A DNA stretch of 64,000 nucleotides from Candidatus Kaiserbacteria bacterium (GTDB taxonomy: Bacteria; Patescibacteriota; Minisyncoccia; Phycocordibacterales; UBA918), in assembly GCA_016699245.1 (NCBI GenBank), contig CP064968.1, positions 155,386-219,385 on the forward strand. The letters are read 5' to 3'. The position numbers were made by a program, and so were the translations under genes. The notes beneath the pieces were generated by a model. The model made no database searches, was not told the origin of the DNA, and was given only the letters and a program-made list of their open reading frames with translations. This document shows positions 1,727-44,478 of this stretch, one piece after another. The stretch's first letter is position 1; each line of letters begins with the position of its first letter.

Positions 1727-2434
1727 GTGATAAAATATTTGAGTATGGAAATTCCCCAAAATATTCTCAATAAATTTTTGGTTAGACCAGACTATTTGGA
1801 GTGGATTGAAGCCCAGCAGTCAATTTATGTATATTTTGACTTTACTAATATGCTCCATTGGCAGGATAGACTAGGTTGGAAATTTCGTTTTGAGGACTTA
1901 ATGACACAACTTCTTTCATACCCAAATATAAAAGAAGTAAAACTATACTATGGCGAGAATCCACGCGATGAACTTAATTCTAAAGCTTTTCATTCTCGGT
2001 TGCGCAAAACAGGCGCTATTGTTCGCAGTAAACCAATGAAGTTTATACAGAGACACATACATGAAGGGCTATTCTTTCAACGCAATACATTAGCAACCTT
2101 TGATGAAACCATTTCAGCGAGTATTGTCACAGTTGTAGAGCAATTAAAGGAATCAGGATTGGTTATTGAAGAACCAAAATGTAATTTCGATGTTGAAATG
2201 ACGATGGATTTACTTGATGATACCGAAAAATTTACAACAGTTCTCCTTTTTTCTGGTGACTCTGATATGTATGCCCCATTAGAGCGTCTAAAAATTAAGG
2301 GTAAGGCGATTGGTGTTGTTGGTGTTCGTGGTCATGTTTCGACCGAATTACACGAAGTTAAAGATAAATATATTGACTTCGGAAAGTTTTATACAGGCAA
2401 GCGCAACTATAAAAGCGAAAATCCCGCCAATTAA
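1727..2434 (+). CDS. NYN-domain (LabA-like) protein
   Basis: Acidic motifs (FDVEMTMDLLDD, FSGDSDM) consistent with NYN/LabA nuclease fold. Weak call. Confidence 0.4.
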   Translation: MIKYLSMEIPQNILNKFLVRPDYLEWIEAQQSIYVYFDFTNMLHWQDRLGWKFRFEDLMTQLLSYPNIKEVKLYYGENPRDELNSKAFHSRLRKTGAIVRSKPMKFIQRHIHEGLFFQRNTLATFDETISASIVTVVEQLKESGLVIEEPKCNFDVEMTMDLLDDTEKFTTVLLFSGDSDMYAPLERLKIKGKAIGVVGVRGHVSTELHEVKDKYIDFGKFYTGKRNYKSENPAN

Positions 2435-3083
2435 AGCGGGACCGCAAAATTAGTAGAATTGCTTCTACGTTTTAGATTATACAGTATTTATAGCAAATAA
2501 CAATAGTTATCAACACTTATGAAAAGTACTCTCGTATAACAAAAAATCCCTCATTGAGAGGGGTTCTTTGGTATGCCTGGCTTCAGCTTACAGAATCTGA
2601 TGGCTGAACGGGGCTTTCGCCCACAGGCACTATCTAAATATACACCGAATTTCACTGATTGTCGCATAATTATAATGAATTACGAAATCCCTTCTCAAAA
2701 TTTGTAACTATCTCATATGGGGACTGTGGCGAATTGTGCTCGTCACCATTGGTGCAATTTTCTTTTTTGAGCATGGTTTTGGCCAGAGCTATATTTTGAA
2801 TCAGAAAATCTTTTCACAGATATATGGATTTCCACATATGCATTCGTCGTGTTTTACGGCCTTGCGCTATGGCACGTCGTCTCCGAAGGTGAACGTGACG
2901 TGTCTCTTTGGGTAAAGATAAAACAAGGGATTGTAATTTCATTCAACAAAATGCTCTTTGCATTTCTCGTATTCACCATATACATCATGGTAATGGCCGC
3001 TGCGAGTGAAGGGGTGTAGCAGTATGAGATAATAGTTACACAAGCGACATACGTTCAAAAGAGTTTTAAATATTTATGTATTT

Positions 3084-3929
3084 ATGAAAAAAGAATCAAA
3101 AAATAAAGCAATTGCAATTTTTGAAGGCAGTCACATTCGACGTCATTGGGACGACGAAAAAGAACTTTGGTATTTTGCTATTATGGATATTATCCAAGTA
3201 TTAGCACAAACTGACAGACCACGAAAATACTGGAATGATTTGAAAACTAAACTTAAGAAAGAGGGAAGTGAGGTGTCCGAAAAAATCGGACAACTGAAAA
3301 TGCAGGCTAGTGACGGCAAGTTTTATCTTACTGATGTCGCTGATACAGAGGTGTTACTCCGCCTCATCCAATCCATTCCATCCCCAAACGCTGAGCCATT
3401 CAAGCTTTGGCTTGCGCGTGTGGGCTACGAGCGCCTCGAAGAGACTGCCGACCCAGAATTGGCCATTCAACGCTCTCTTAAGACATATTTGCAAAAGGGA
3501 TACAGCAAAGACTGGATTAACCAACGACTGAAGAGTATCGAAATCCGAAAGACGCTCACTGATGAATGGGAAAAGCGAGGTGCAAAAGAAGGTCTAGAGT
3601 TTGCCATCCTCACAAACGAAATTACCAAGGCATGGACTGGCATGACGACCAAAGAATACAAAAATTTAAAAGGACTAAAAAAAGAAAATCTGCGTGACAA
3701 CATGACCAACCTTGAATTGGTGCTCAACATGCTCGCAGAGACGGCAACAACAGAAATCTCAGAAAAACGTGAGCCAAAAACGCTGGACGAAAATAAGATT
3801 GTTGCTCGTGAAGGCGGAAGTATTGCAGGTAATGCGCGCAAAGACATTGAGGCAAAAACAGGAAAGAAAGTAATCACAAAGAAAAACGCAAAAGTGCTCC
3901 TTGCAAAAAATATTAAGAAAATTAAATAG
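3084..3929 (+). CDS. DNA-damage-inducible protein D (DinD)-like, Bro-N/KilA-N N-terminus
   Basis: C-terminal KGLKKENLRDNMTNLELVLNMLAETATTEISEKRE parallels E. coli DinD KGLKKNQKILDHMGSTELAANLFRATQTEEKLKRDG. N-terminal Bro-N-like region. Confidence 0.65.
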   Translation: MKKESKNKAIAIFEGSHIRRHWDDEKELWYFAIMDIIQVLAQTDRPRKYWNDLKTKLKKEGSEVSEKIGQLKMQASDGKFYLTDVADTEVLLRLIQSIPSPNAEPFKLWLARVGYERLEETADPELAIQRSLKTYLQKGYSKDWINQRLKSIEIRKTLTDEWEKRGAKEGLEFAILTNEITKAWTGMTTKEYKNLKGLKKENLRDNMTNLELVLNMLAETATTEISEKREPKTLDENKIVAREGGSIAGNARKDIEAKTGKKVITKKNAKVLLAKNIKKIK

Positions 3930-4066
3930 CAGTTACAAAGGTCAGACCTCGCCGGCATCTTCTACGGCATCGACTCTGTACCAAAAGGCTGGTATGAAGC
4001 TGTAGTGAGAATAGGGGAGATAGAGGAATTGTGTGTTTAGTTGAATAGATGCTACGCTACTACTAT

Positions 4067-4933
4067 ATGAAAACTCAAATCATACAGGTCGTTAAATTTG
4101 TTGGAGCAGTAGTCCTGGTAGCAATTTTGATTCCTACTATTTTTTATGTTTCTCTTCTATTGTGGGGAGATTGGCATGATGAATGGAGCGGATACAACGC
4201 AGGATGGTATATAAGTGATGGTCAATGCAATATTGCGGTGATTCCGATTGATGGAGAAATCACTACGTTTCCATATGAACTTGGAGGCGAGGAAGAGGGT
4301 GACCCTCCATCACTCTCTACAAGTATGACCGACACACTTTCGCTCCTCAATACTGCCGAAAATTATGACCCCAACATTCAGGGAATCCTCATGCTCATCG
4401 ACTCAGGAGGAGGCTCACCATCAGCATCGAAGATGATTGCTGATGAGTTGAAGGGAAGTACACTTCCTGTCGCGGCCTTTATTCTCGACTATGCAGCTTC
4501 CGGTGGCTACTACGTAGCCACCGGCGCCGACACCATCATCGCCAATCCATTTTCCGACGTGGGCTCCATTGGCATCACCATGTCATATCTCGACTACTCA
4601 AAGCAAAATGCTGAGCAGGGGCTCGAGTACGTTTCACTCTCCTCTGGCAAATTCAAGGATTCAGGCACGCCAGACAGGGCGCTCACCGCAGAAGAGCGCG
4701 CACTCTTTGAGCGCGACTTAAAGATTTACCACGACACCTTTGTAAAAGAAGTGGCACAGAATCGTAATCTCCCTGTAGAAGACGTAGCAAAACTAGCCGA
4801 CGGCTCCACCCTCCCCGCACCACTAGCATTAGAAGCCAAACTCATCGATCAAATAGGAGGGAAGGAAGATGCTCGCGCGTGGTTTGCAGAGCAATTGGGG
4901 ATGAATGTGGAGGATGTGGTGTTATGTCAGTAA
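4067..4933 (+). CDS. sppA: S49 peptidase, SppA-like (36K type), N-terminal TM anchor
   Basis: ILMLIDSGGGSPSAS and catalytic region DYAASGGYYVATGAD; TM helix at N-terminus. Start moved to MKTQ. Confidence 0.65.
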   Translation: MKTQIIQVVKFVGAVVLVAILIPTIFYVSLLLWGDWHDEWSGYNAGWYISDGQCNIAVIPIDGEITTFPYELGGEEEGDPPSLSTSMTDTLSLLNTAENYDPNIQGILMLIDSGGGSPSASKMIADELKGSTLPVAAFILDYAASGGYYVATGADTIIANPFSDVGSIGITMSYLDYSKQNAEQGLEYVSLSSGKFKDSGTPDRALTAEERALFERDLKIYHDTFVKEVAQNRNLPVEDVAKLADGSTLPAPLALEAKLIDQIGGKEDARAWFAEQLGMNVEDVVLCQ

Positions 4934-5004
4934 GACTTTCTTTTAAAAATGACATATTTTCAAGAATAATTGAGTAAAGTGAGTTGAGATGATAGTGTTA
5001 TATT

Positions 5005-5352
5005 ATGACTAATTCAGACAGACTTGAGAATTTAACAGAAAGAATAATTCAATTTCGTGACGACCGAGATTGGAAGCAATTTCACGACCCAAAGAATCTT
5101 GCCATTTCTCTACAGTTAGAGGCCTCAGAGGTTTTAGAGCTTTTTCAGTGGACGAAAGATAATGAGATAAAGAACGGAAAAGAAGAAGAAATTGCAGACG
5201 AACTCAGTGATGTCTTTTACTGGGTCATTATGCTTGCACATTACTACAAAATTGACCTCATTGGTGCTTTGGAAAAGAAAATGTATAAAAATGAAGTAAA
5301 GTATCCAGTAGAAAAAGCTAAAGGAAAGGCCGACAAGTATACCGAACTCTAA
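5005..5352 (+). CDS. MazG-like nucleotide pyrophosphohydrolase
   Basis: RDWKQFHDPKNLAISLQLEASEVLELFQW matches the MazG/NTP-PPase fold. Stop lies 1 nt before the next ATG, so operonic. Confidence 0.6.
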   Translation: MTNSDRLENLTERIIQFRDDRDWKQFHDPKNLAISLQLEASEVLELFQWTKDNEIKNGKEEEIADELSDVFYWVIMLAHYYKIDLIGALEKKMYKNEVKYPVEKAKGKADKYTEL

Positions 5353-5353
5353 T

Positions 5354-7663
5354 ATGATTGTTTATCAATCAACGAAACTGGGGTTTTTAAAAGATGCTTC
5401 AAATGGAATTGAAGATATTGTTAGGTCTCGAGTAAAGGAAAAACTTAATATTGATATTCAAGTTGGAAGTAGCGAGTACAACTCATGGAAAAATTCCCTT
5501 GGCGATGCAATGTATAAAGTAATGCAGACAGATAAGATCCCAGATGATTCCGGCATAGCTATCGAATATTCAATACCTCGAGCAAAAAATCGCATCGATT
5601 TTATTATTACAGGTGAAGATGATGAAGGAAAAGAAAAAATAATTATCATAGAACTTAAACAGTGGACTGATATAGAAAAGACAGACAAAGATGGTGTCGT
5701 CTTGACTCGTTTCAAAAGTGGTCCGAGCGAAGAACCGCATCCTTCATATCAAGCCTGGTCATACTCAGCTCTTCTTTATGGATTCAATGCAACAGTATAC
5801 GAAGAAAAAATTAGCCTAGAGCCTTGCGCATACCTACATAATCATATTGATAGTGATGTTATTTTAAGCCCATTTTATCAAGAGTATTTGGATAAAGCCC
5901 CAGCATTTTGTAAAGGTGACAAAGAAAAACTTCAAGATTTTATCGCTAAATTTGTAAAGCATGGTGAAAAGAAAAATACACTTTATAGAATAGATAATGG
6001 AGAAATTCGCCCATCAAAAAATCTTGCTGACAGTCTTACCTCAATGCTAAAAGGTAATCAAGAATTTGTTTTGATAGATGAACAAAAAGTTGTATACGAA
6101 ACTGCTCTATCTCTTACGAAAAAATCATCAAAACAAAATAAAAATGTATTAATTATCGAAGGTGGCCCAGGTACAGGTAAATCAGTTGTAGCCATAAATC
6201 TTTTAGTTGCAATTACTAAACTTGGACTGAATACACAGTATGTAACAAAGAATGCTGCGCCACGGGGAGTGTTTGAAGCAAAACTTACGGGCACATTTAA
6301 GAAATCAGAAATATCAAATTTTTTTACAGGATCCGGTTCCTTTGTTGGAGAAAAGGAAAATATTTTTGATGCTCTAATTGTAGACGAAGCTCATAGACTT
6401 AATAAAAAGTCTGGGATGTTTAAGAATTTAGGCGAAAACCAAATAAAAGAAATTATTGATTCTGCAAAATGCTCAATATTTTTTATTGATGAGGATCAAA
6501 AAGTGACGTGGCATGATATAGGTAAAAAAGAAGAAATTGAAAAATGGGCTGATAAAATCCATGCTAAAGTTTGTAACCTTAAGCTCGAATCGCAATTTCG
6601 GTGCAATGGTTCCGATGGCTACTTATCGTGGCTCGATAATATTCTCGGTATTAAAGATACTGCCAATACCACACTGGATGGTATAGAGTACGATTTTAGG
6701 GTTATAGACTCGCCTAACGAGCTGAGAGATTTAATTTTTGAAAAAAATAAGATAAATAATAAGGCTCGACTCGTAGCAGGATATTGTTGGGATTGGGTCA
6801 GTAAAAAAGACAAGCGTTTAAATGACATTCTTATTCCAGAGCATGATTTTGGTATGCAGTGGAACCTTGCGAGTGATGGAAACGTATGGATTATATCGCC
6901 AAAGTCTGTAAATGAAATTGGTTGTATCCACACATGCCAAGGCCTAGAAGTTGATTATGTTGGAGTTATTGTGGGTAGAGATTTTGTTATAAGAAACGGT
7001 AAAGTAATCACTAATCCTCATGAACGTGCAAAAACTGACGCCTCATTGAAGGGATATAAAAAAGAATTAAAAGAAAGACCAGAAGTTACAGCCGAAAAGG
7101 CTATGTCGATAATTAAAAATACTTATCGAACCCTTATGACACGCGGAATGAAAGGGTGCTATGTATATTTTGTAGACAAAGAAACTGAAAAATACTTTAA
7201 AGACAGAATGAACCTTTCAACACTTACTAAAAAGCCAGTATCAGAAAGTATTATTTCTCCATATGTAGAGGAAATGGTTCTAGTTCCACTCGTTGGATCT
7301 GCGCCTTGTGGTGAGCCACTTTTCGGTGAATCAAATATTGAAGACGTGATACAGGTTGAAAAAAGAAAAATCAGACCCGGCTCAAAATATTTCATTGTCC
7401 GTGCCTCTGGTGATTCAATGAATAAGGCTGGTATAAATGACAACGACCTCGTATTGTGTCGTTTTGCAGAGAAGGCAGAAACTGGTGACAGAGTAGTCGC
7501 GCTACTTGGTGGTGAATATGTGACTATAAAATACTATGATAAAAAAGATGGTCGTCGAATTCTGCTTCCAAAAAGTACAAACAGCACTCACCAACCAATA
7601 ACTCCTGAGGAAGGAGACGTGGTGCAGGGTATTGTTCAAGAAATTTTGCCTAATCCTGAGTAA
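5354..7663 (+). CDS. Multidomain protein: N-terminal PD-(D/E)xK nuclease-like, DUF2075/Schlafen-like P-loop ATPase, C-terminal LexA-type S24 autopeptidase domain
   Basis: N-terminus RIDFIITGED...IIIELKQW (D..ExK). Walker A GGPGTGKS, Walker B IVDEAHRL (DUF2075 pattern). C-terminus PLVGSAPCGEPLFG...ASGDSMNKAGI...VTIKYY parallels LexA PLVGRVAAGEPL...GMSM...VTVKRL (scissile C-G, Ser/Lys dyad). Confidence 0.6.
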   Translation: MIVYQSTKLGFLKDASNGIEDIVRSRVKEKLNIDIQVGSSEYNSWKNSLGDAMYKVMQTDKIPDDSGIAIEYSIPRAKNRIDFIITGEDDEGKEKIIIIELKQWTDIEKTDKDGVVLTRFKSGPSEEPHPSYQAWSYSALLYGFNATVYEEKISLEPCAYLHNHIDSDVILSPFYQEYLDKAPAFCKGDKEKLQDFIAKFVKHGEKKNTLYRIDNGEIRPSKNLADSLTSMLKGNQEFVLIDEQKVVYETALSLTKKSSKQNKNVLIIEGGPGTGKSVVAINLLVAITKLGLNTQYVTKNAAPRGVFEAKLTGTFKKSEISNFFTGSGSFVGEKENIFDALIVDEAHRLNKKSGMFKNLGENQIKEIIDSAKCSIFFIDEDQKVTWHDIGKKEEIEKWADKIHAKVCNLKLESQFRCNGSDGYLSWLDNILGIKDTANTTLDGIEYDFRVIDSPNELRDLIFEKNKINNKARLVAGYCWDWVSKKDKRLNDILIPEHDFGMQWNLASDGNVWIISPKSVNEIGCIHTCQGLEVDYVGVIVGRDFVIRNGKVITNPHERAKTDASLKGYKKELKERPEVTAEKAMSIIKNTYRTLMTRGMKGCYVYFVDKETEKYFKDRMNLSTLTKKPVSESIISPYVEEMVLVPLVGSAPCGEPLFGESNIEDVIQVEKRKIRPGSKYFIVRASGDSMNKAGINDNDLVLCRFAEKAETGDRVVALLGGEYVTIKYYDKKDGRRILLPKSTNSTHQPITPEEGDVVQGIVQEILPNPE

Positions 7664-7782
7664 AAAATGGAAGAGAAGCGGTGGTGTAGTGAAATGGGGA
7701 TAAGTACGTTTTAATTTCAGAAAAATAAGGTCAGCCACAATTTTTTATTGGTAATAACTTATGATTCTGATTTTAATGGTGG

Positions 7783-8128
7783 TCCGGTGGCAGGAGGATT
7801 CTTCCATTACATGGACCGTTTAGGTCGTATGACAATTTCTTCCTCTGGTCGAAATTGTCGACGACCTTTTCGAATCCTGACGAAAGCAATTTTGTATTGC
7901 TTTCTCCACTGGAGCTTGTTAGCAAAAATCCCCAAAGAGGGGATTTTTGCTAACAAGCTCCAGTGGCAGGAATTTCTCCATCGACTAATTTTCTAACGAA
8001 AATTGTCTGGGCACCGACTCACTGTTGCAAAGCAACATGCTCCGTCGTTCGAATCCTGACGAAATGTGCGCAGGCACATTTCTCCACCTCCGCAAATTAA
8101 AATAACCCCATGAGGGGTTATTTTAATT
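7783..8128. repeat. Two degenerate tandem units (~173-175 bp) carrying tRNA-Asn 3'-end-like motifs and terminator-like hairpins
   Basis: tccggtggcagga at 7783-7795 and tccagtggcagga at 7958-7971 versus the tRNA 3' end at 8131-8144. Shared ttcgaatcctgacgaaa+hairpin+ttctcca blocks. A-run/stem/T-run hairpins at 7924-7949 and 8099-8127. Confidence 0.6.
8099..8127. terminator. Bidirectional intrinsic terminator hairpin after tRNA-Asn
   Basis: aaaataacccc-atga-ggggttatttt: stem with flanking A/T runs. Confidence 0.6.
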
Positions 8129-8130
8129 TG

Positions 8131-8461
8131 CTCCGGTGGCAGGATTCGAACCTGCGGCCAATTGATTACACGTGTCCTACTATTTCTAGTGGGGGTGGAC
8201 TATATCATCATCCTTTCAAAACTGAATAGGATGCAAGGCGCTTCGACCCATTTCTGGGGCTACTCCCGTTAGGGATAGTCTCTGAACCTTCAATGATGTT
8301 TTCACATCAAAGCTTGGCTGCTGATTGCCCACAACATTACTTGCTAGGGTTTCCAGACAATTCACCTTGTTTTCGACCTACTTCTCAGTAGGAAGCTGCA
8401 TTTTGAAACTCGATTGAGTTCGTGTTTACAGTCAACTGCTCTACCGCTGAGCTACACCGGA
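8131..8461 (-). tRNA. tRNA-Asn(GUU) interrupted by a group I intron between anticodon positions 35 and 36
   Basis: Exons (8461-8428 and 8168-8131) join to UCCGGUGUAGCUCAGCGGUAGAGCAGUUGACUGU|UAAUCAAUUGGCCGCAGGUUCGAAUCCUGCCACCGGAG. Cloverleaf with U1-A72, loop CUGUUAA, T-arm GGUUCGAAUCC. CCA not encoded. Confidence 0.75.
8169..8427 (-). ncRNA. Group I intron (259 nt) within tRNA-Asn
   Basis: Core elements on minus strand: P AATTGTCTGGAAA, Q AATCAGCAGCCAAGC, R GTTCAGAGACTA, S GATGATATAGTCC. IGS GCAG can pair with exon CUGU; intron ends in G (CACGTG|TAAT). Confidence 0.7.
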
Positions 8462-8850
8462 ATGTGTATTTTTTCTGTGTACTTCATTGATAGTGTGGAA
8501 GCAATCTCTTGGGGAGCAGTTGACTGACAGTCAACTTTCTTACAGAAACTGTTCAGGTTGTATGATAATTTTCGTAAACTCAAATTATCGACAACCTCTT
8601 GCGAAGTGACTTTGTGTCACTTCTCACTCTACCGCTGAGCTACACCGGAATGTGTAGTCTATTCCATTATAGCCATTGTTAGCGTGAAACTTCTGTATTG
8701 GGAGCAGTTGACTGACAGTCAACCTCCTTAACAGGAGCTGTTTAGGTTGTATGATATTTTCTTTCGAAAATCTCGACAACCTCTTGCGAAGTGACTTTGT
8801 GTCACTTCTCACTCCACCGCTGAACTATACTGGAATGTGTACTTTGTCTC
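8462..8850. repeat. Tandem repeats (~185-188 bp, 2 units plus stub) each carrying a copy of the tRNA-Asn 5' end
   Basis: Units start at 8462, 8650 and 8835 (aatgtgta...). Each contains ctctaccgctgagctacaccgg (rev-comp of tRNA 5' 22 nt; third copy degenerate) and the palindrome gttgactgtcagtcaac related to tRNA GCAGTTGACTGT. Confidence 0.65.
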
Positions 8851-8988
8851 TCTATTAGGGACAGACAGCATTGTACAGAAAAATGGCGAGTCTGCAAATG
8901 GATAGCGAGGAATATGGGGTGGGAGGGGGGTAGGGCGGTATTGGTGATATACTCAGGTATTATGCGCTATGCATTTAGTCACTAGTAT

Positions 8989-9210
8989 ATGTACATACGT
9001 GTTCATGCGATTCCTAACGCAAAGAAAGAGAAGGTGATACGTGAAGACGAGACCACTTTTACTATTTCCGTAAAGGAGCCCGCAACACAAAATCTCGCCA
9101 ACAAGCGGATTCGGGAAGTTTTGGCTCAGGAATTAGGTGTTTCTCCTACGCACGTGCGCCTACTGACGGGACACCAAAATAGGAGTAAAATGTATAGTGT
9201 AGAGATGTAG
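8989..9210 (+). CDS. DUF167/YggU-family small protein
   Basis: Pattern VHAIPNAKKEKV...ISVKEPATQNLANKRIREVLAQELGV resembles UPF0235/YggU. Confidence 0.5.
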   Translation: MYIRVHAIPNAKKEKVIREDETTFTISVKEPATQNLANKRIREVLAQELGVSPTHVRLLTGHQNRSKMYSVEM

Positions 9211-11516: not shown

Positions 11517-13401
11517 TCCGGTCGGGGTTGATGACGATACGGACGGAGGGGGGGAGGGAGCGAAGTAATGCGCTTAATTTTTGGTTGGGCCATTCGTTAC
11601 TCGGGATGCGCATGAGCCCGTACATTATAGGTGCTTCTTTGGTGGAGGTGGGGCTTTGGTAGACGGAAAGTTTGTAGTCCTTGAGGATTGCGGTTATGTC
11701 TTCTTCGAGTTTTTTGGTCACAAGCGGTGAGCCCTGCCAGGTAAGGTGCACAAAGGTGGCGTAGGGTGGATATGCAAATGATTTCCGAAGTGCAAGCTCC
11801 TCGGTATAAAAATTCTCCACATACCCATGGCGTGCAAAGGTGAGTGTGGGTGCCTCGGGAGCGCGCGTCTGAATAAATACTTTACCCTTTGTGCTTTCGC
11901 GAAGACGGAGGAGGAGGGCGAGATTTTCTTCTTCGAGACGCCAGGTGGGTGTTGCAAGGAGTGCGTCCATGTTGACCACGACCGAGAGGTCGACAGGCAG
12001 AGTGAGATAGGGAAGTGTCATGTGTGTTCCAAGCAGAATCACCCCTTTGCCAGAGTAGAAGGTATCACGAAGAAACAGCGCTTTTTTATAAGTCTTTGCG
12101 GTGATGTGGTCAAAGAGAATGACCGGGATGGTGGGAAATTGTTTATGCAGTTCGTCATATACCTGCTGGATGCCGATGCCGCGCTCGCGAAGGCGCCACG
12201 ACCCGCATGCGGTACAGGTCTCGCTCGCGCGCACGCGCTCGCCCGAAGCACTACACACAAACCAGCGTTCCTCGACGCCACCTTTCATGGTACGAATGAG
12301 TGAGTACGGCGCGCCACTTTCTTTTGAGCGAAAGATGTACCCACAATCAATACACGACACCACCGGTGCGAGCCCACGACGAGCCGCAAAGAGAAACATA
12401 CGCCCCTTTTTCTTGCGGACCTCTTTAATAGCCTGCACCACTTCTGGTGAAAAAAGTGCAAAGGATGCTGCAAGAGCATCTTCCTTTGGTGAAGTATCTA
12501 TTACCTCAAGTGTGCCAGGAAGTTCTATGCGCTTCGGTGTTTCACCCAAGGTTGCATAGTGTTCATCCCGTCGTAGTGACTCTTCTTCGGCACGTGGCAA
12601 GATATCAGCAAAGAGCAGGGTGCGACCCGTGTGGCGCGCATGGATGCGGAGTACGTCGCGGTAGTCGAGATAGGGACGCGTCAATTCTTTGTAGTACGGT
12701 GAGCGCGCATGTTCGATAATGACGGTGGTAATGTCGTGTCGCTCTATGAGTGCATAGGTAGGTGTGGTGATAATGAGTTTTGCTTTGCTAAAATCCTCAA
12801 GACGCGCAAACCCTTTTTTGATTTCTGATTTTGTACATGCGGTAGTGAGGAGGATGATGCGGTCGGTGATACCATTTTGTAATTCAGTACATACCTCAGT
12901 TGCTTCTATCGATGATGGCACGACAATCAAGACTGAGCCACTGTGTGCAAAAGTCTCACGCACAAGTGAACGATACGCCAAATAGCGGTCGCTCTTTTTT
13001 GCTTCTAGTACTTGAGGCACGTGTGTCTCCTCGGGGGTCACATGATGTGTGTGGGGAATCTCGATTTCACCATTCCTAATTTCGGGAGGCAGGAGTGCAT
13101 AAAGCACAGCACCAACGGAAGACGCATACTGAAGACTGAGTGCCTCTGCTGTTTTAACATATGCGTCTCCGAGGGAATGAAGTGTTTTCTGTGGTGGAAG
13201 TTTGCGCAGTGAAAAGGTGGCAGCACGGAGCGCGGTTTTTGTGGTGCTTACCTCATGCACTTCAGTAACGAGTCCAAGTGCAGATGAGTTACGCACAGGG
13301 ATAGTGACAATACTTCCGGGTGCATACGAAATACTCGAAAAGTAGGAGAGAGAATCGATGGTGACACCGCGACGCAAAGGGACAACAGTAATTACGAACA
13401 T
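11509..13401 (-). CDS. priA: Primosomal protein N' (PriA helicase)
   Basis: Cys-rich zinc-binding insertion (CIDCGYIF...CTACGSWRLRERGIG), helicase motifs. Conserved priA-def-fmt arrangement. Confidence 0.85.
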   Translation of the reverse strand: MFVITVVPLRRGVTIDSLSYFSSISYAPGSIVTIPVRNSSALGLVTEVHEVSTTKTALRAATFSLRKLPPQKTLHSLGDAYVKTAEALSLQYASSVGAVLYALLPPEIRNGEIEIPHTHHVTPEETHVPQVLEAKKSDRYLAYRSLVRETFAHSGSVLIVVPSSIEATEVCTELQNGITDRIILLTTACTKSEIKKGFARLEDFSKAKLIITTPTYALIERHDITTVIIEHARSPYYKELTRPYLDYRDVLRIHARHTGRTLLFADILPRAEEESLRRDEHYATLGETPKRIELPGTLEVIDTSPKEDALAASFALFSPEVVQAIKEVRKKKGRMFLFAARRGLAPVVSCIDCGYIFRSKESGAPYSLIRTMKGGVEERWFVCSASGERVRASETCTACGSWRLRERGIGIQQVYDELHKQFPTIPVILFDHITAKTYKKALFLRDTFYSGKGVILLGTHMTLPYLTLPVDLSVVVNMDALLATPTWRLEEENLALLLRLRESTKGKVFIQTRAPEAPTLTFARHGYVENFYTEELALRKSFAYPPYATFVHLTWQGSPLVTKKLEEDITAILKDYKLSVYQSPTSTKEAPIMYGLMRIPSNEWPNQKLSALLRSLPPSVRIVINPDRIV

Positions 13402-44208: not shown

Positions 44209-44226
44209 TGTGACCCTACCGGGAAA
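44209..44226. repeat. Partial copy of tRNA-Glu 3' end (tgaccctaccgggaa)
   Basis: 15/15 identity to 44407-44421 (tRNA-Glu 3' acceptor/T-stem), then divergence. A further T-arm-like remnant ggtcttcgattcccgga lies at ~44297. Confidence 0.55.
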
Positions 44227-44406
44227 TTCGAAGCCTACTGCTTCAGTACACCTTGTCAGTATTTTGTTTCCTTTCAGTCACAAAATACTAGGCAAGGTCT
44301 TCGATTCCCGGACGAAGAGTCTCTCAGACTCTTCTTAGGGTCATGGGAAGTTTAACAAAGAAAAATCCCTTATGAATAAGGGATTTTTCTTTAAAAACTT
44401 CTACCA

Positions 44407-44478
44407 TGACCCTACCGGGAATCGAACCCGGATTTCTTGGATGAGAACCAAGTGTCCTAACCGTTAGACGATAGGGCC
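44407..44478 (-). tRNA. tRNA-Glu(CUC)
   Basis: Minus strand GGCCCUAUCGUCUAACGGUUAGGACACUUGGUUCUCAUCCAAGAAAUCCGGGUUCGAUUCCCGGUAGGGUCA. Good cloverleaf; anticodon loop UUCUCAU; CCA not encoded. Confidence 0.75.

Follow-up and report, generated by a model that had tools for sequence, protein, structure and literature searches.

A tRNA-Asn(GUU) gene of a Kaiserbacteria genome split at 35/36 by a group I intron, and the tRNA-derived units that flank it

Group I introns in bacterial tRNA genes have classically been described at sites such as 34/35 in cyanobacterial tRNA-Leu(UAA), 33/34 in tRNA-fMet and 36/37 in tRNA-Arg(CCU) and in the tRNA-Ile of Azoarcus, whereas those of the Patescibacteria lie at 35/36. 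The latter were described in genes for tRNA-Asn and tRNA-Asp by Nakagawa, Amikura, Omae and Suzuki (mSystems 2026; PMC13011429; preprint 10.1101/2025.07.03.662931). We report here on a 64,000-nt stretch of a Candidatus Kaiserbacteria genome (assembly GCA_016699245.1, contig CP064968.1, positions 155,386 to 219,385), referred to below as the window. Positions 8131-8461 of its minus strand almost certainly correspond to a gene of this kind, namely a tRNA-Asn(GUU) gene of a member of the Paceibacteria (Patescibacteria) into which a 259-nt, IA-like group I intron without a homing endonuclease is inserted, between anticodon positions 35 and 36. This exact gene is already published, and the finding itself confirms a known result and is not new.

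Among 95 complete Patescibacteria genomes, 22 intron-containing tRNAs were found in that survey, 15 of which are tRNA-Asn(GUU) interrupted at 35/36; the hosts of introns at this site are tRNA-Asn(GUU), tRNA-Asp(GUC) or tRNA-Tyr(GUA) (PMC13011429). Nearly all tRNA introns of Patescibacteria belong to subgroup IA, in contrast to the classical bacterial tRNA introns, which are mostly of subgroup IC (this subgroup makes up 81% of bacterial tRNA introns overall), and HNH genes are present in four tRNA-Asn introns (PMC13011429). Self-splicing in vitro was obtained for two examples, with sequenced junctions and an omega-G mutant as control. For the tRNA-Asn intron of GCA_016700035.1, splicing was GTP-dependent, the sequenced junction was at 35/36 and an omega-G-to-C control was splicing-dead (PMC13011429). 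GCA_016699245.1 is listed in Table 1 as Asn (GUU) 35/36 and in Table S3 as Paceibacteria, minus strand, 163516-163846, with the intron at 163554-163812 (PMC13011429). Upon comparing window positions 8131-8461 with the Table S3 entry, 331 of 331 nt were identical and the exon/intron boundaries were the same. The published intron thus shows no difference from that of the window; the tRNA-derived units that flank it are not mentioned in PMC13011429. Taken as a single anchor, the match would put the window at an offset of about 155,385 in GCA_016699245.1. An earlier note on this DNA, made from the sequence alone, had considered both an Asn(GUU) host and this insertion site unusual. On the contrary, tRNA-Asn at 35/36 is the commonest tRNA intron described in Patescibacteria (PMC13011429).

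Exon 1 (8461-8428, minus strand) is the 34-nt sequence TCCGGTGTAGCTCAGCGGTAGAGCAGTTGACTGT, whose last nucleotide, U35, lies just 5' of the splice site; exon 2 (8168-8131, minus strand) is the 38-nt sequence TAATCAATTGGCCGCAGGTTCGAATCCTGCCACCGGAG, in which CCA is not encoded. The joined exons (72 nt) are folded by ARAGORN into a canonical tRNA-Asn(gtt) cloverleaf with U1-A72, G73 and the loop CUGUUAA. Both U1-A72 and G73 are features of tRNA-Asn. When the raw region was submitted with introns allowed, ARAGORN returned tRNA-Asn (gtt) i(35,259). The split gene is missed by ARAGORN in its default mode and by the Rfam tRNA model, both of which see the tRNA-Glu(CUC) at 44407-44478 alone in the window. 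The Rfam scan for group I introns, suggested as a check in the earlier note, matched RF00028 (Intron_gpI) at 8431-8176 (minus strand) along the whole model (1-253), with 83.5 bits (gathering score 50) and E = 9e-20. The exon coordinates and the 259-nt spacing given in that note were exact to the base. Its identification of the joined exons as tRNA-Asn(GUU) agrees with the ARAGORN cloverleaf, and its placing of the insertion between anticodon positions 35 and 36 agrees both with the i(35,259) call and with intron-less orthologues, which the join matches. The P, Q, R and S elements were all found where the note had located them, and the guide GCAG pairing with exon CUGU and the terminal G are likewise present. 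The parts of the gene are given below with their basis; base i of the intron corresponds to window coordinate 8428 - i, and loci used for comparison are cited by L-numbers.

8428-8461, minus strand: tRNA-Asn exon 1 (positions 1-35, ends CUGU); sequence, ARAGORN, identical published entry
8131-8168, minus strand: tRNA-Asn exon 2 (positions 36-73, begins UAA); sequence, ARAGORN, identical published entry
8169-8427, minus strand: group I intron, 259 nt, with no open reading frame (ORF); full-length RF00028 match, 92% identity to the L031 core, compensatory changes
8428-8431 with 8396-8399, minus strand: P1, exon CUGU with guide GCAG, including a U35-G wobble
8406-8427, minus strand: 22-nt hairpin filling the P1 loop (AAACACGA...TCGAGTTT); sequence; relatives carry an HNH ORF at this position
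8395-8399, minus strand: internal guide GCAG(C); GCAGC invariant in 11/11 homologous introns
8377-8392, minus strand: P2 hairpin (CCUACU GAGA AGUAGG); minimum free energy (MFE) fold, sequence
8363-8369 with 8234-8240, minus strand: P3, CAAGGUG with CGCCUUG; RNAalifold, 7 pairs
8318-8360, minus strand: P4-P5 domain, with P element AAUUGUCUGGAAA, P5 hairpin and Q element AAUCAGCAGCC; RF00028, RNAalifold, fold
8288-8312, minus strand: P6 hairpin; RF00028, fold
8276-8287, minus strand: R element GUUCAGAGACUA (J6/7 and P7 5' strand); invariant or nearly so in 10 homologues
8245-8275, minus strand: P7.1 (UCCC UAAC GGGA) and P7.2 (GCCCCA GAAA UGGGUC); MFE fold, P7.2 covarying
8209-8233, minus strand: P8 hairpin; RF00028, RNAalifold, fold
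8197-8206, minus strand: S element GAUAUAGUCC (P7 3' strand); invariant in 10 homologues
8176-8193, minus strand: P9 hairpin with GAAA loop; RF00028, fold
8169, minus strand: omega-G (terminal G); sequence; all 11 homologues end in G

The comparison set was based on the neighbouring fmt gene and comprised 80 loci. The closest relatives of fmt are found in metagenome-assembled genomes of Patescibacteria labelled Kaiserbacteria, Paceibacterota and similar, the best of them, L001, being 86% identical. About 45 of the 80 loci have a tRNA-Asn a few kb downstream of fmt, and in ten loci besides the window (L007, L010, L017, L031, L032, L041, L050, L061, L067 and L077) this gene is split at the same site. 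In all ten, exon 1 ends with CTGT, the intron ends with G and exon 2 starts with TAA; counting the window, CTGT is found in 11/11 exons and GCAGC in 11/11 introns. Uninterrupted tRNA-Asn genes are present in L001 and L011, with 98.6% and 94.4% identity, respectively, to the joined exons of the window. The occurrence of the same split gene in ten related loci, together with the near identity of the joined exons to the uninterrupted L001 gene, takes the finding far beyond chance.

Upon aligning ten intron cores, GCAGC and the S element were found to be invariant and the R element invariant or nearly so. RNAalifold predicted 38 pairs from the ten homologues, 15 of them with compensatory changes, which fall in P3, P4, P5, P7.2 and P8. 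One P3 pair alternates between G-C and A-U in 4 of the 10 sequences, and the pairs of P7.2 are changed on both sides in 3-7 of the 10 sequences per pair. The P1 pairing is invariant and hence provides no covariation evidence; P7, invariant as well, is uninformative in this respect. An unconstrained MFE fold of the window intron recovered P2, P3, P4, P5, P6, P7.1, P7.2, P8 and P9, with P7.1 and P7.2 folding between the P7 5' strand and the P3 3' strand, as expected of subgroup IA. The differences between the window intron and the L031 core lie in loops or are compensated.

Several relatives have larger tRNA-Asn introns, of 560-716 nt (L031 20254-20814; L010 12609-13186; L032 2449-3038; L050 3327-4042; L067 1592-2154). 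In L010, L031, L032 and L050, the P1 loop of the intron houses an HNH ORF of about 115-124 aa, placed after the 5' splice site and before the guide; its last codons overlap both P2 and the internal guide (ACGCAGCTTCC). In the L067 intron, it is the opposite strand that carries the longest ORF found. The L050 intron has additional long hairpins in P6 and P7.2. The window intron shares site and core with these HNH-encoding introns (and with the four cases reported in PMC13011429), but the ORF is absent: where the relatives hold it, there are only 28 nt, and the window intron therefore has no homing endonuclease. It is a derivative of HNH-bearing relatives and hence probably no longer mobile. The GCA_016700035.1 intron, from another Patescibacteria class (Saccharimonadia), resembles that of the window in host tRNA, 35/36 site, CUGU/GCAG P1, core elements and absence of an ORF. 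It differs in length (234 nt, versus 259 nt in the window), with 173 identical aligned positions, and in its P1 loop, which is short, whereas that of the window intron accommodates an extra hairpin.

Once transcribed, the intron would fold into a catalytic core made up of P3-P9 plus P7.1 and P7.2. The guide GCAG would pair with the last four exon bases, CUGU, generating P1 with the U35-G wobble at the splice site; free guanosine would then attack after U35, and the freed exon 1 would attack after the terminal G (8169) and be joined to exon 2, so that the loop CUGUUAA would be restored. Some points weigh against this account. P1 comprises only 4 bp, and by inspection no convincing complementarity to exon 2 (UAAUCA) that could form P10 was seen in the bases 5' of GCAG. 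Many group I introns can do without P10. Assignment to subgroup IA, here worded as IA-like, draws on the occurrence of P7.1 and P7.2 and on a general statement in PMC13011429. That the window copy splices is what we infer, its anatomy, family membership, conservation and junction coming from the present analysis and in vitro self-splicing at 35/36 from a homologue only. Finally, the Table S2 counts of tRNA-Asn in GCA_016699245.1 (tRNAscan-SE 1, ARAGORN 2, tFind 1; PMC13011429) are such that a second, intron-less copy seems to exist outside the window. Genomes with both intron-less and intron-containing tRNA-Asn are rare (PMC13011429), and with a second tRNA-Asn in the same genome, selection on the split copy could be relaxed.

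These counts bear on the possibility that the split gene is a decaying, non-functional copy with an intron that no longer splices, the cell relying on the second, intron-less tRNA-Asn. The loss of the homing endonuclease and the partial tRNA-Asn copies that surround the locus would also fit, but we consider such decay very unlikely: the window copy keeps every conserved core position of the ten-sequence alignment, its exons yield a perfect cloverleaf, the pattern of differences from the L031 intron is that described above, and the gene lies downstream of fmt, at a conserved site that also holds the tRNA-Asn of most relatives. The earlier note had held that an intact tRNA-Asn elsewhere would make this gene a pseudogene. 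Such a copy does seem to exist, but pseudogene status is not borne out, since exons and intron core are intact and conserved. A reading of the gene as tRNA-Thr(UGU), its intron shifted by 2 nt in the 5' direction to 33/34, can be practically discarded. In its favour, moving both boundaries by 2 nt still puts a U ahead of the intron and makes G the last intron base (…GACU/GUAAAC … CACG/UGUAAUC), ARAGORN calls L007, L032, L041, L050 and L077 Thr(tgt) at 33/34 and tFind annotates this very gene as Thr(UGU) (PMC13011429). The guide GCAG, however, pairs with CUGU and not with GACU, U1-A72 and G73 point to tRNA-Asn, and the sequenced spliced product of a homologue showed 35/36 (PMC13011429). Moreover, the uninterrupted tRNA-Asn of L001 and L011, reading CTGTTAATCAAT, is obtained by no join other than that at 35/36, which fixes the junction and rules the threonine reading out.

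The split tRNA-Asn gene is embedded in an array of tRNA-derived units. On the minus strand, the order is a promoter-like site, two 5'-type units, the split tRNA, a long hairpin and two 3'-type units. A covariance model, R1, was built for these units and found 25 copies in the window and the 80 loci. The elements of the array, and those next to the tRNA-Glu(CUC) gene of the window, are as follows.

8898-8870, minus strand: promoter-like site TTTGCA-17-TACAAT, upstream of the whole array; sequence
8701-8834, minus strand: 5'-type unit, leader; repeats D1, D2 and I8, R1 scan
8513-8649, minus strand: 5'-type unit, leader; repeats D1, D2 and I7, R1 scan
8084-8139, minus strand: terminator-like hairpin at the start of the first downstream unit, outside the intron; inverted repeat I2, 26 nt, 88% complementary
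7957-8093, minus strand: 3'-type unit with variant module, ending in a tRNA 3'-half copy (…TTCCTGCCACTGGAGC); weak R1 match, 24 bits; 88% identical to the L007 unit
7780-7914, minus strand: 3'-type unit with canonical module, ending …CCTGCCACCGGACCA; R1 75.6 bits, nhmmer E = 4e-19
44211-44347, minus strand: 3'-type unit after tRNA-Glu(CUC) 44407-44478, adapted to the Glu T-arm and acceptor; R1 81 bits
44594-44618, minus strand: copy of the first 19 nt of tRNA-Glu(CUC), upstream of that tRNA; sequence

L001, L005 and L007 have the TTTTCTGTACAATG motif conserved in the corresponding position, and in L017 it is nearly conserved; this conserved promoter-like site suggests that leader units and tRNA may share one transcript. 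A 5'-type unit carries tRNA-Asn positions 1-24, followed by hairpin A and a B/C module; positions 27-35 come next, and then an antisense copy running from position 34 back to position 22. Its sense part ends exactly at the intron site (CUGU), and the arrangement mirrors that of the downstream units. Other 5'-type units are found at L011 12634-12775, at L007 3740-3880 and in L005 from 12320 to the contig end, and leader copies also precede tRNA-Ser(CGA) in L141 and L176.

A 3'-type unit begins with the tRNA 3' end and trailer, followed by a loop, anti-trailer and anti-acceptor, GAG, hairpin A and CGU. The antisense of the T-loop and of the T-stem 3' strand comes next, then GAAR, a long hairpin B and N-N-A-C, and the unit closes with hairpin C (loop N-GUA-R), GAA and a sense copy of tRNA positions about 58-73. 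In relatives, 3'-type units follow tRNA-Asn at L001 16610-16745, L011 12930-13060, L017 12390-12725 (three in tandem) and L024 12440-12575. The variant module of the first downstream unit (TTCGAAC-GACGGAGC-hairpin … CCCAGACAATTTTC-GTTA-GAAAATT), which R1 detects weakly, is also present at L007 4290-4415 and possibly downstream of tRNA-Asn in L025 and L080. The rising arm of the 8084-8139 hairpin takes in the tRNA acceptor 3' strand, and both this hairpin and its L011 counterpart retain a GGA/GGA internal loop. Positions 7906-7966 form a second long hairpin, with 28 bp of perfect pairing and the appearance of an intrinsic terminator, whose stem extends into the acceptor 3' strand of the preceding tRNA-like end. 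A simple terminator scan of 7650-9000 found none, because the U tract is inside the long stems. Relatives that lack a unit have a plain terminator, an inverted 3' half (L065 and L078, right after the terminator of tRNA-Asn and without hairpin A or B/C module) or a displaced 3' half starting from the anticodon loop (L047, about 11870-11960, a direct tRNA-Asn copy from anticodon loop to 3' end).

Beyond the array, positions 1727-7663 (plus strand) hold genes of low GC content (37-41%), coding for an NYN nuclease, a Bro-N protein, an S49 peptidase and a MazG-like protein. The same genes include one for a 769-aa protein in which a Schlafen-group-3/DUF2075 helicase is fused to an S24 (LexA-like) peptidase. 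The run of genes looks like a variable or defence-type region adjoining the tRNA; no integrase was seen among the genes of 1727-7663. An exact-protein look-up for the HPF of the window gave no record.

The structure of the units was analysed on two sets of copies. With 15 copies from the fmt loci, RNAalifold predicted 19 pairs, 15 of which show compensatory changes. A pattern scan of metagenome contigs matched at least 120 contigs, and in 98 of the 123 matches listed a tRNA on the same strand lies within 400 nt upstream, usually 50-100 nt away; among those matches, the upstream tRNAs represent at least 28 anticodons and 18 amino acids. Twelve pattern matches in viral contigs were considered to be chance matches, none of them being confirmed by the covariance model or located near a tRNA. 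R1 identified 149 copies in 100 metagenome loci among the matches listed. Of these copies, 98 follow a tRNA and 15 follow another unit in tandem; 5 lie upstream of a tRNA, 6 sit at the edge of a contig and 25 have no neighbouring tRNA. Over 136 distinct copies, paired cells make up 93.8%, versus 66% in shuffles, and double changes amount to 635 versus 194. All 19 pairs covary, with a score of 0.617 compared to 0.06-0.14 for slid controls; as this alignment was fitted to R1, it leans towards the structure.

The link to the tRNA is also apparent in the sequences. When reverse-complemented, the anti-T segment agrees with the resident tRNA at 6.85 of 8 positions; for other isoacceptors the figure is 4.77. 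The distal copy matches tRNA positions 60-73 at 83%, against 47% in controls. Where resident and distal copy differ, the antisense tracks the resident 3' half in 18 versus 2 cases for the T part and 32 versus 5 for the acceptor part. When the tRNA 3' half was folded with the downstream sequence, the same three-way junction was obtained in nearly all of 40 examples. The orientation of the unit always matches that of the tRNA. Clustering of ORFs within 2.5 kb of the 149 elements revealed no recurrent integrase, transposase or reverse transcriptase, only housekeeping genes. An Rfam 15 scan of 7650-9000 at E <= 10 gave, besides the intron, only sub-threshold miRNA-type matches to long hairpins, and searches of the literature gave no description of the flanking element.

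Other identities for the units were tried and rejected. They do not correspond to split or trans-spliced tRNA halves of the Nanoarchaeum type, since 5'- and 3'-type units share an internal module and occur singly in relatives, nor to a split group I intron, since they hold no core elements. A hammerhead or other small ribozyme at the B/C junction was likewise dismissed: the GAAR and GUAC junction strands do recall part of a hammerhead core, yet CUGAUGA is absent and Rfam gave no ribozyme hit. A T-box-like specifier at the junction NAC was discarded because NAC does not follow tRNA identity, and mimicry of a TGT substrate by UGU loops because the invariant part of the loop is GUA and not UGU. 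Likewise, GGATTCGAA is not a sense T-arm: the non-palindromic T-loops of L007, L062 and the window tRNA-Glu show that it is antisense.

We tentatively read the locus as exposing an undescribed family of tRNA-linked structured RNAs in Patescibacteria, a reading that is quite possible and still far from secure, in which the sense-antisense-sense triad would be a switch or, alternatively, a new small non-autonomous element. As a switch or insulator at the RNA level, the unit would allow two mutually exclusive pairings among real 3' half, antisense and decoy. The covarying B/C junction, which the antisense-decoy helix closes in the manner of a riboswitch aptamer, would determine whether the antisense stays sequestered or invades the real tRNA, and control would be exerted over the maturation of read-through tRNA precursors. 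As a small non-autonomous element, the unit would insert in the T-loop together with an antisense, a terminator and a 3' half of its own that replaces the old one, the latter being displaced downstream. Insertion of this kind would explain the tandem units, their co-adaptation to the 3' half just upstream and the decay of distal copies; in the 7914-7780 unit, the anti-acceptor is fully complementary to the CCACTGGAG with which the preceding unit ends, and not to the real tRNA (inverted repeat I1). It leaves the strong structural conservation of the B and C stems unexplained unless structure serves mobility. Both the switch and the element fit the units.

That the units are inert scars, that is, tRNA halves displaced when mobile DNA inserted repeatedly or homing endonucleases caused damage, and without any RNA role, appears rather unlikely to us. 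The tandem arrangement, with each unit co-adapted to the 3' half just upstream and the distal copy decaying, would be in line with it, as would the other partial tRNA-Asn copies, direct and inverted, in relatives and the low-GC variable region beyond the array. Against it stand the covariation of the B and C stems and of the closing helix in the 136 copies, with the pairing and double-change excess over shuffles given above, the constant orientation with respect to the tRNA and the lack of a recurrent mobility gene nearby.

Returning to the structured RNA family, its closest parallels lie in two kinds of system. Attenuators and riboswitch expression platforms also have real, antisense and decoy segments that pair in two exclusive ways, but they sequester a terminator or a ribosome-binding site, whereas the units would sequester the tRNA's own 3' half. 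Integrative elements share with the units direct repeats of the tRNA 3' end next to a variable region; unlike them, the units come with no integrase, and their repeats enclose a conserved, covarying three-way junction.

According to the 2026 survey, group I introns at 35/36 are a hallmark of the Patescibacteria genes for tRNA-Asn and tRNA-Asp (PMC13011429). Standard tRNA finders miss such split genes, which matters for estimates of genome completeness. Beyond the published intron, the family of flanking elements is a lead worth following. If the units act on RNA, they would represent a new control or insulation of tRNA maturation for organisms that have very few regulators; if they are mobile DNA, they would represent a new tRNA-targeting element.

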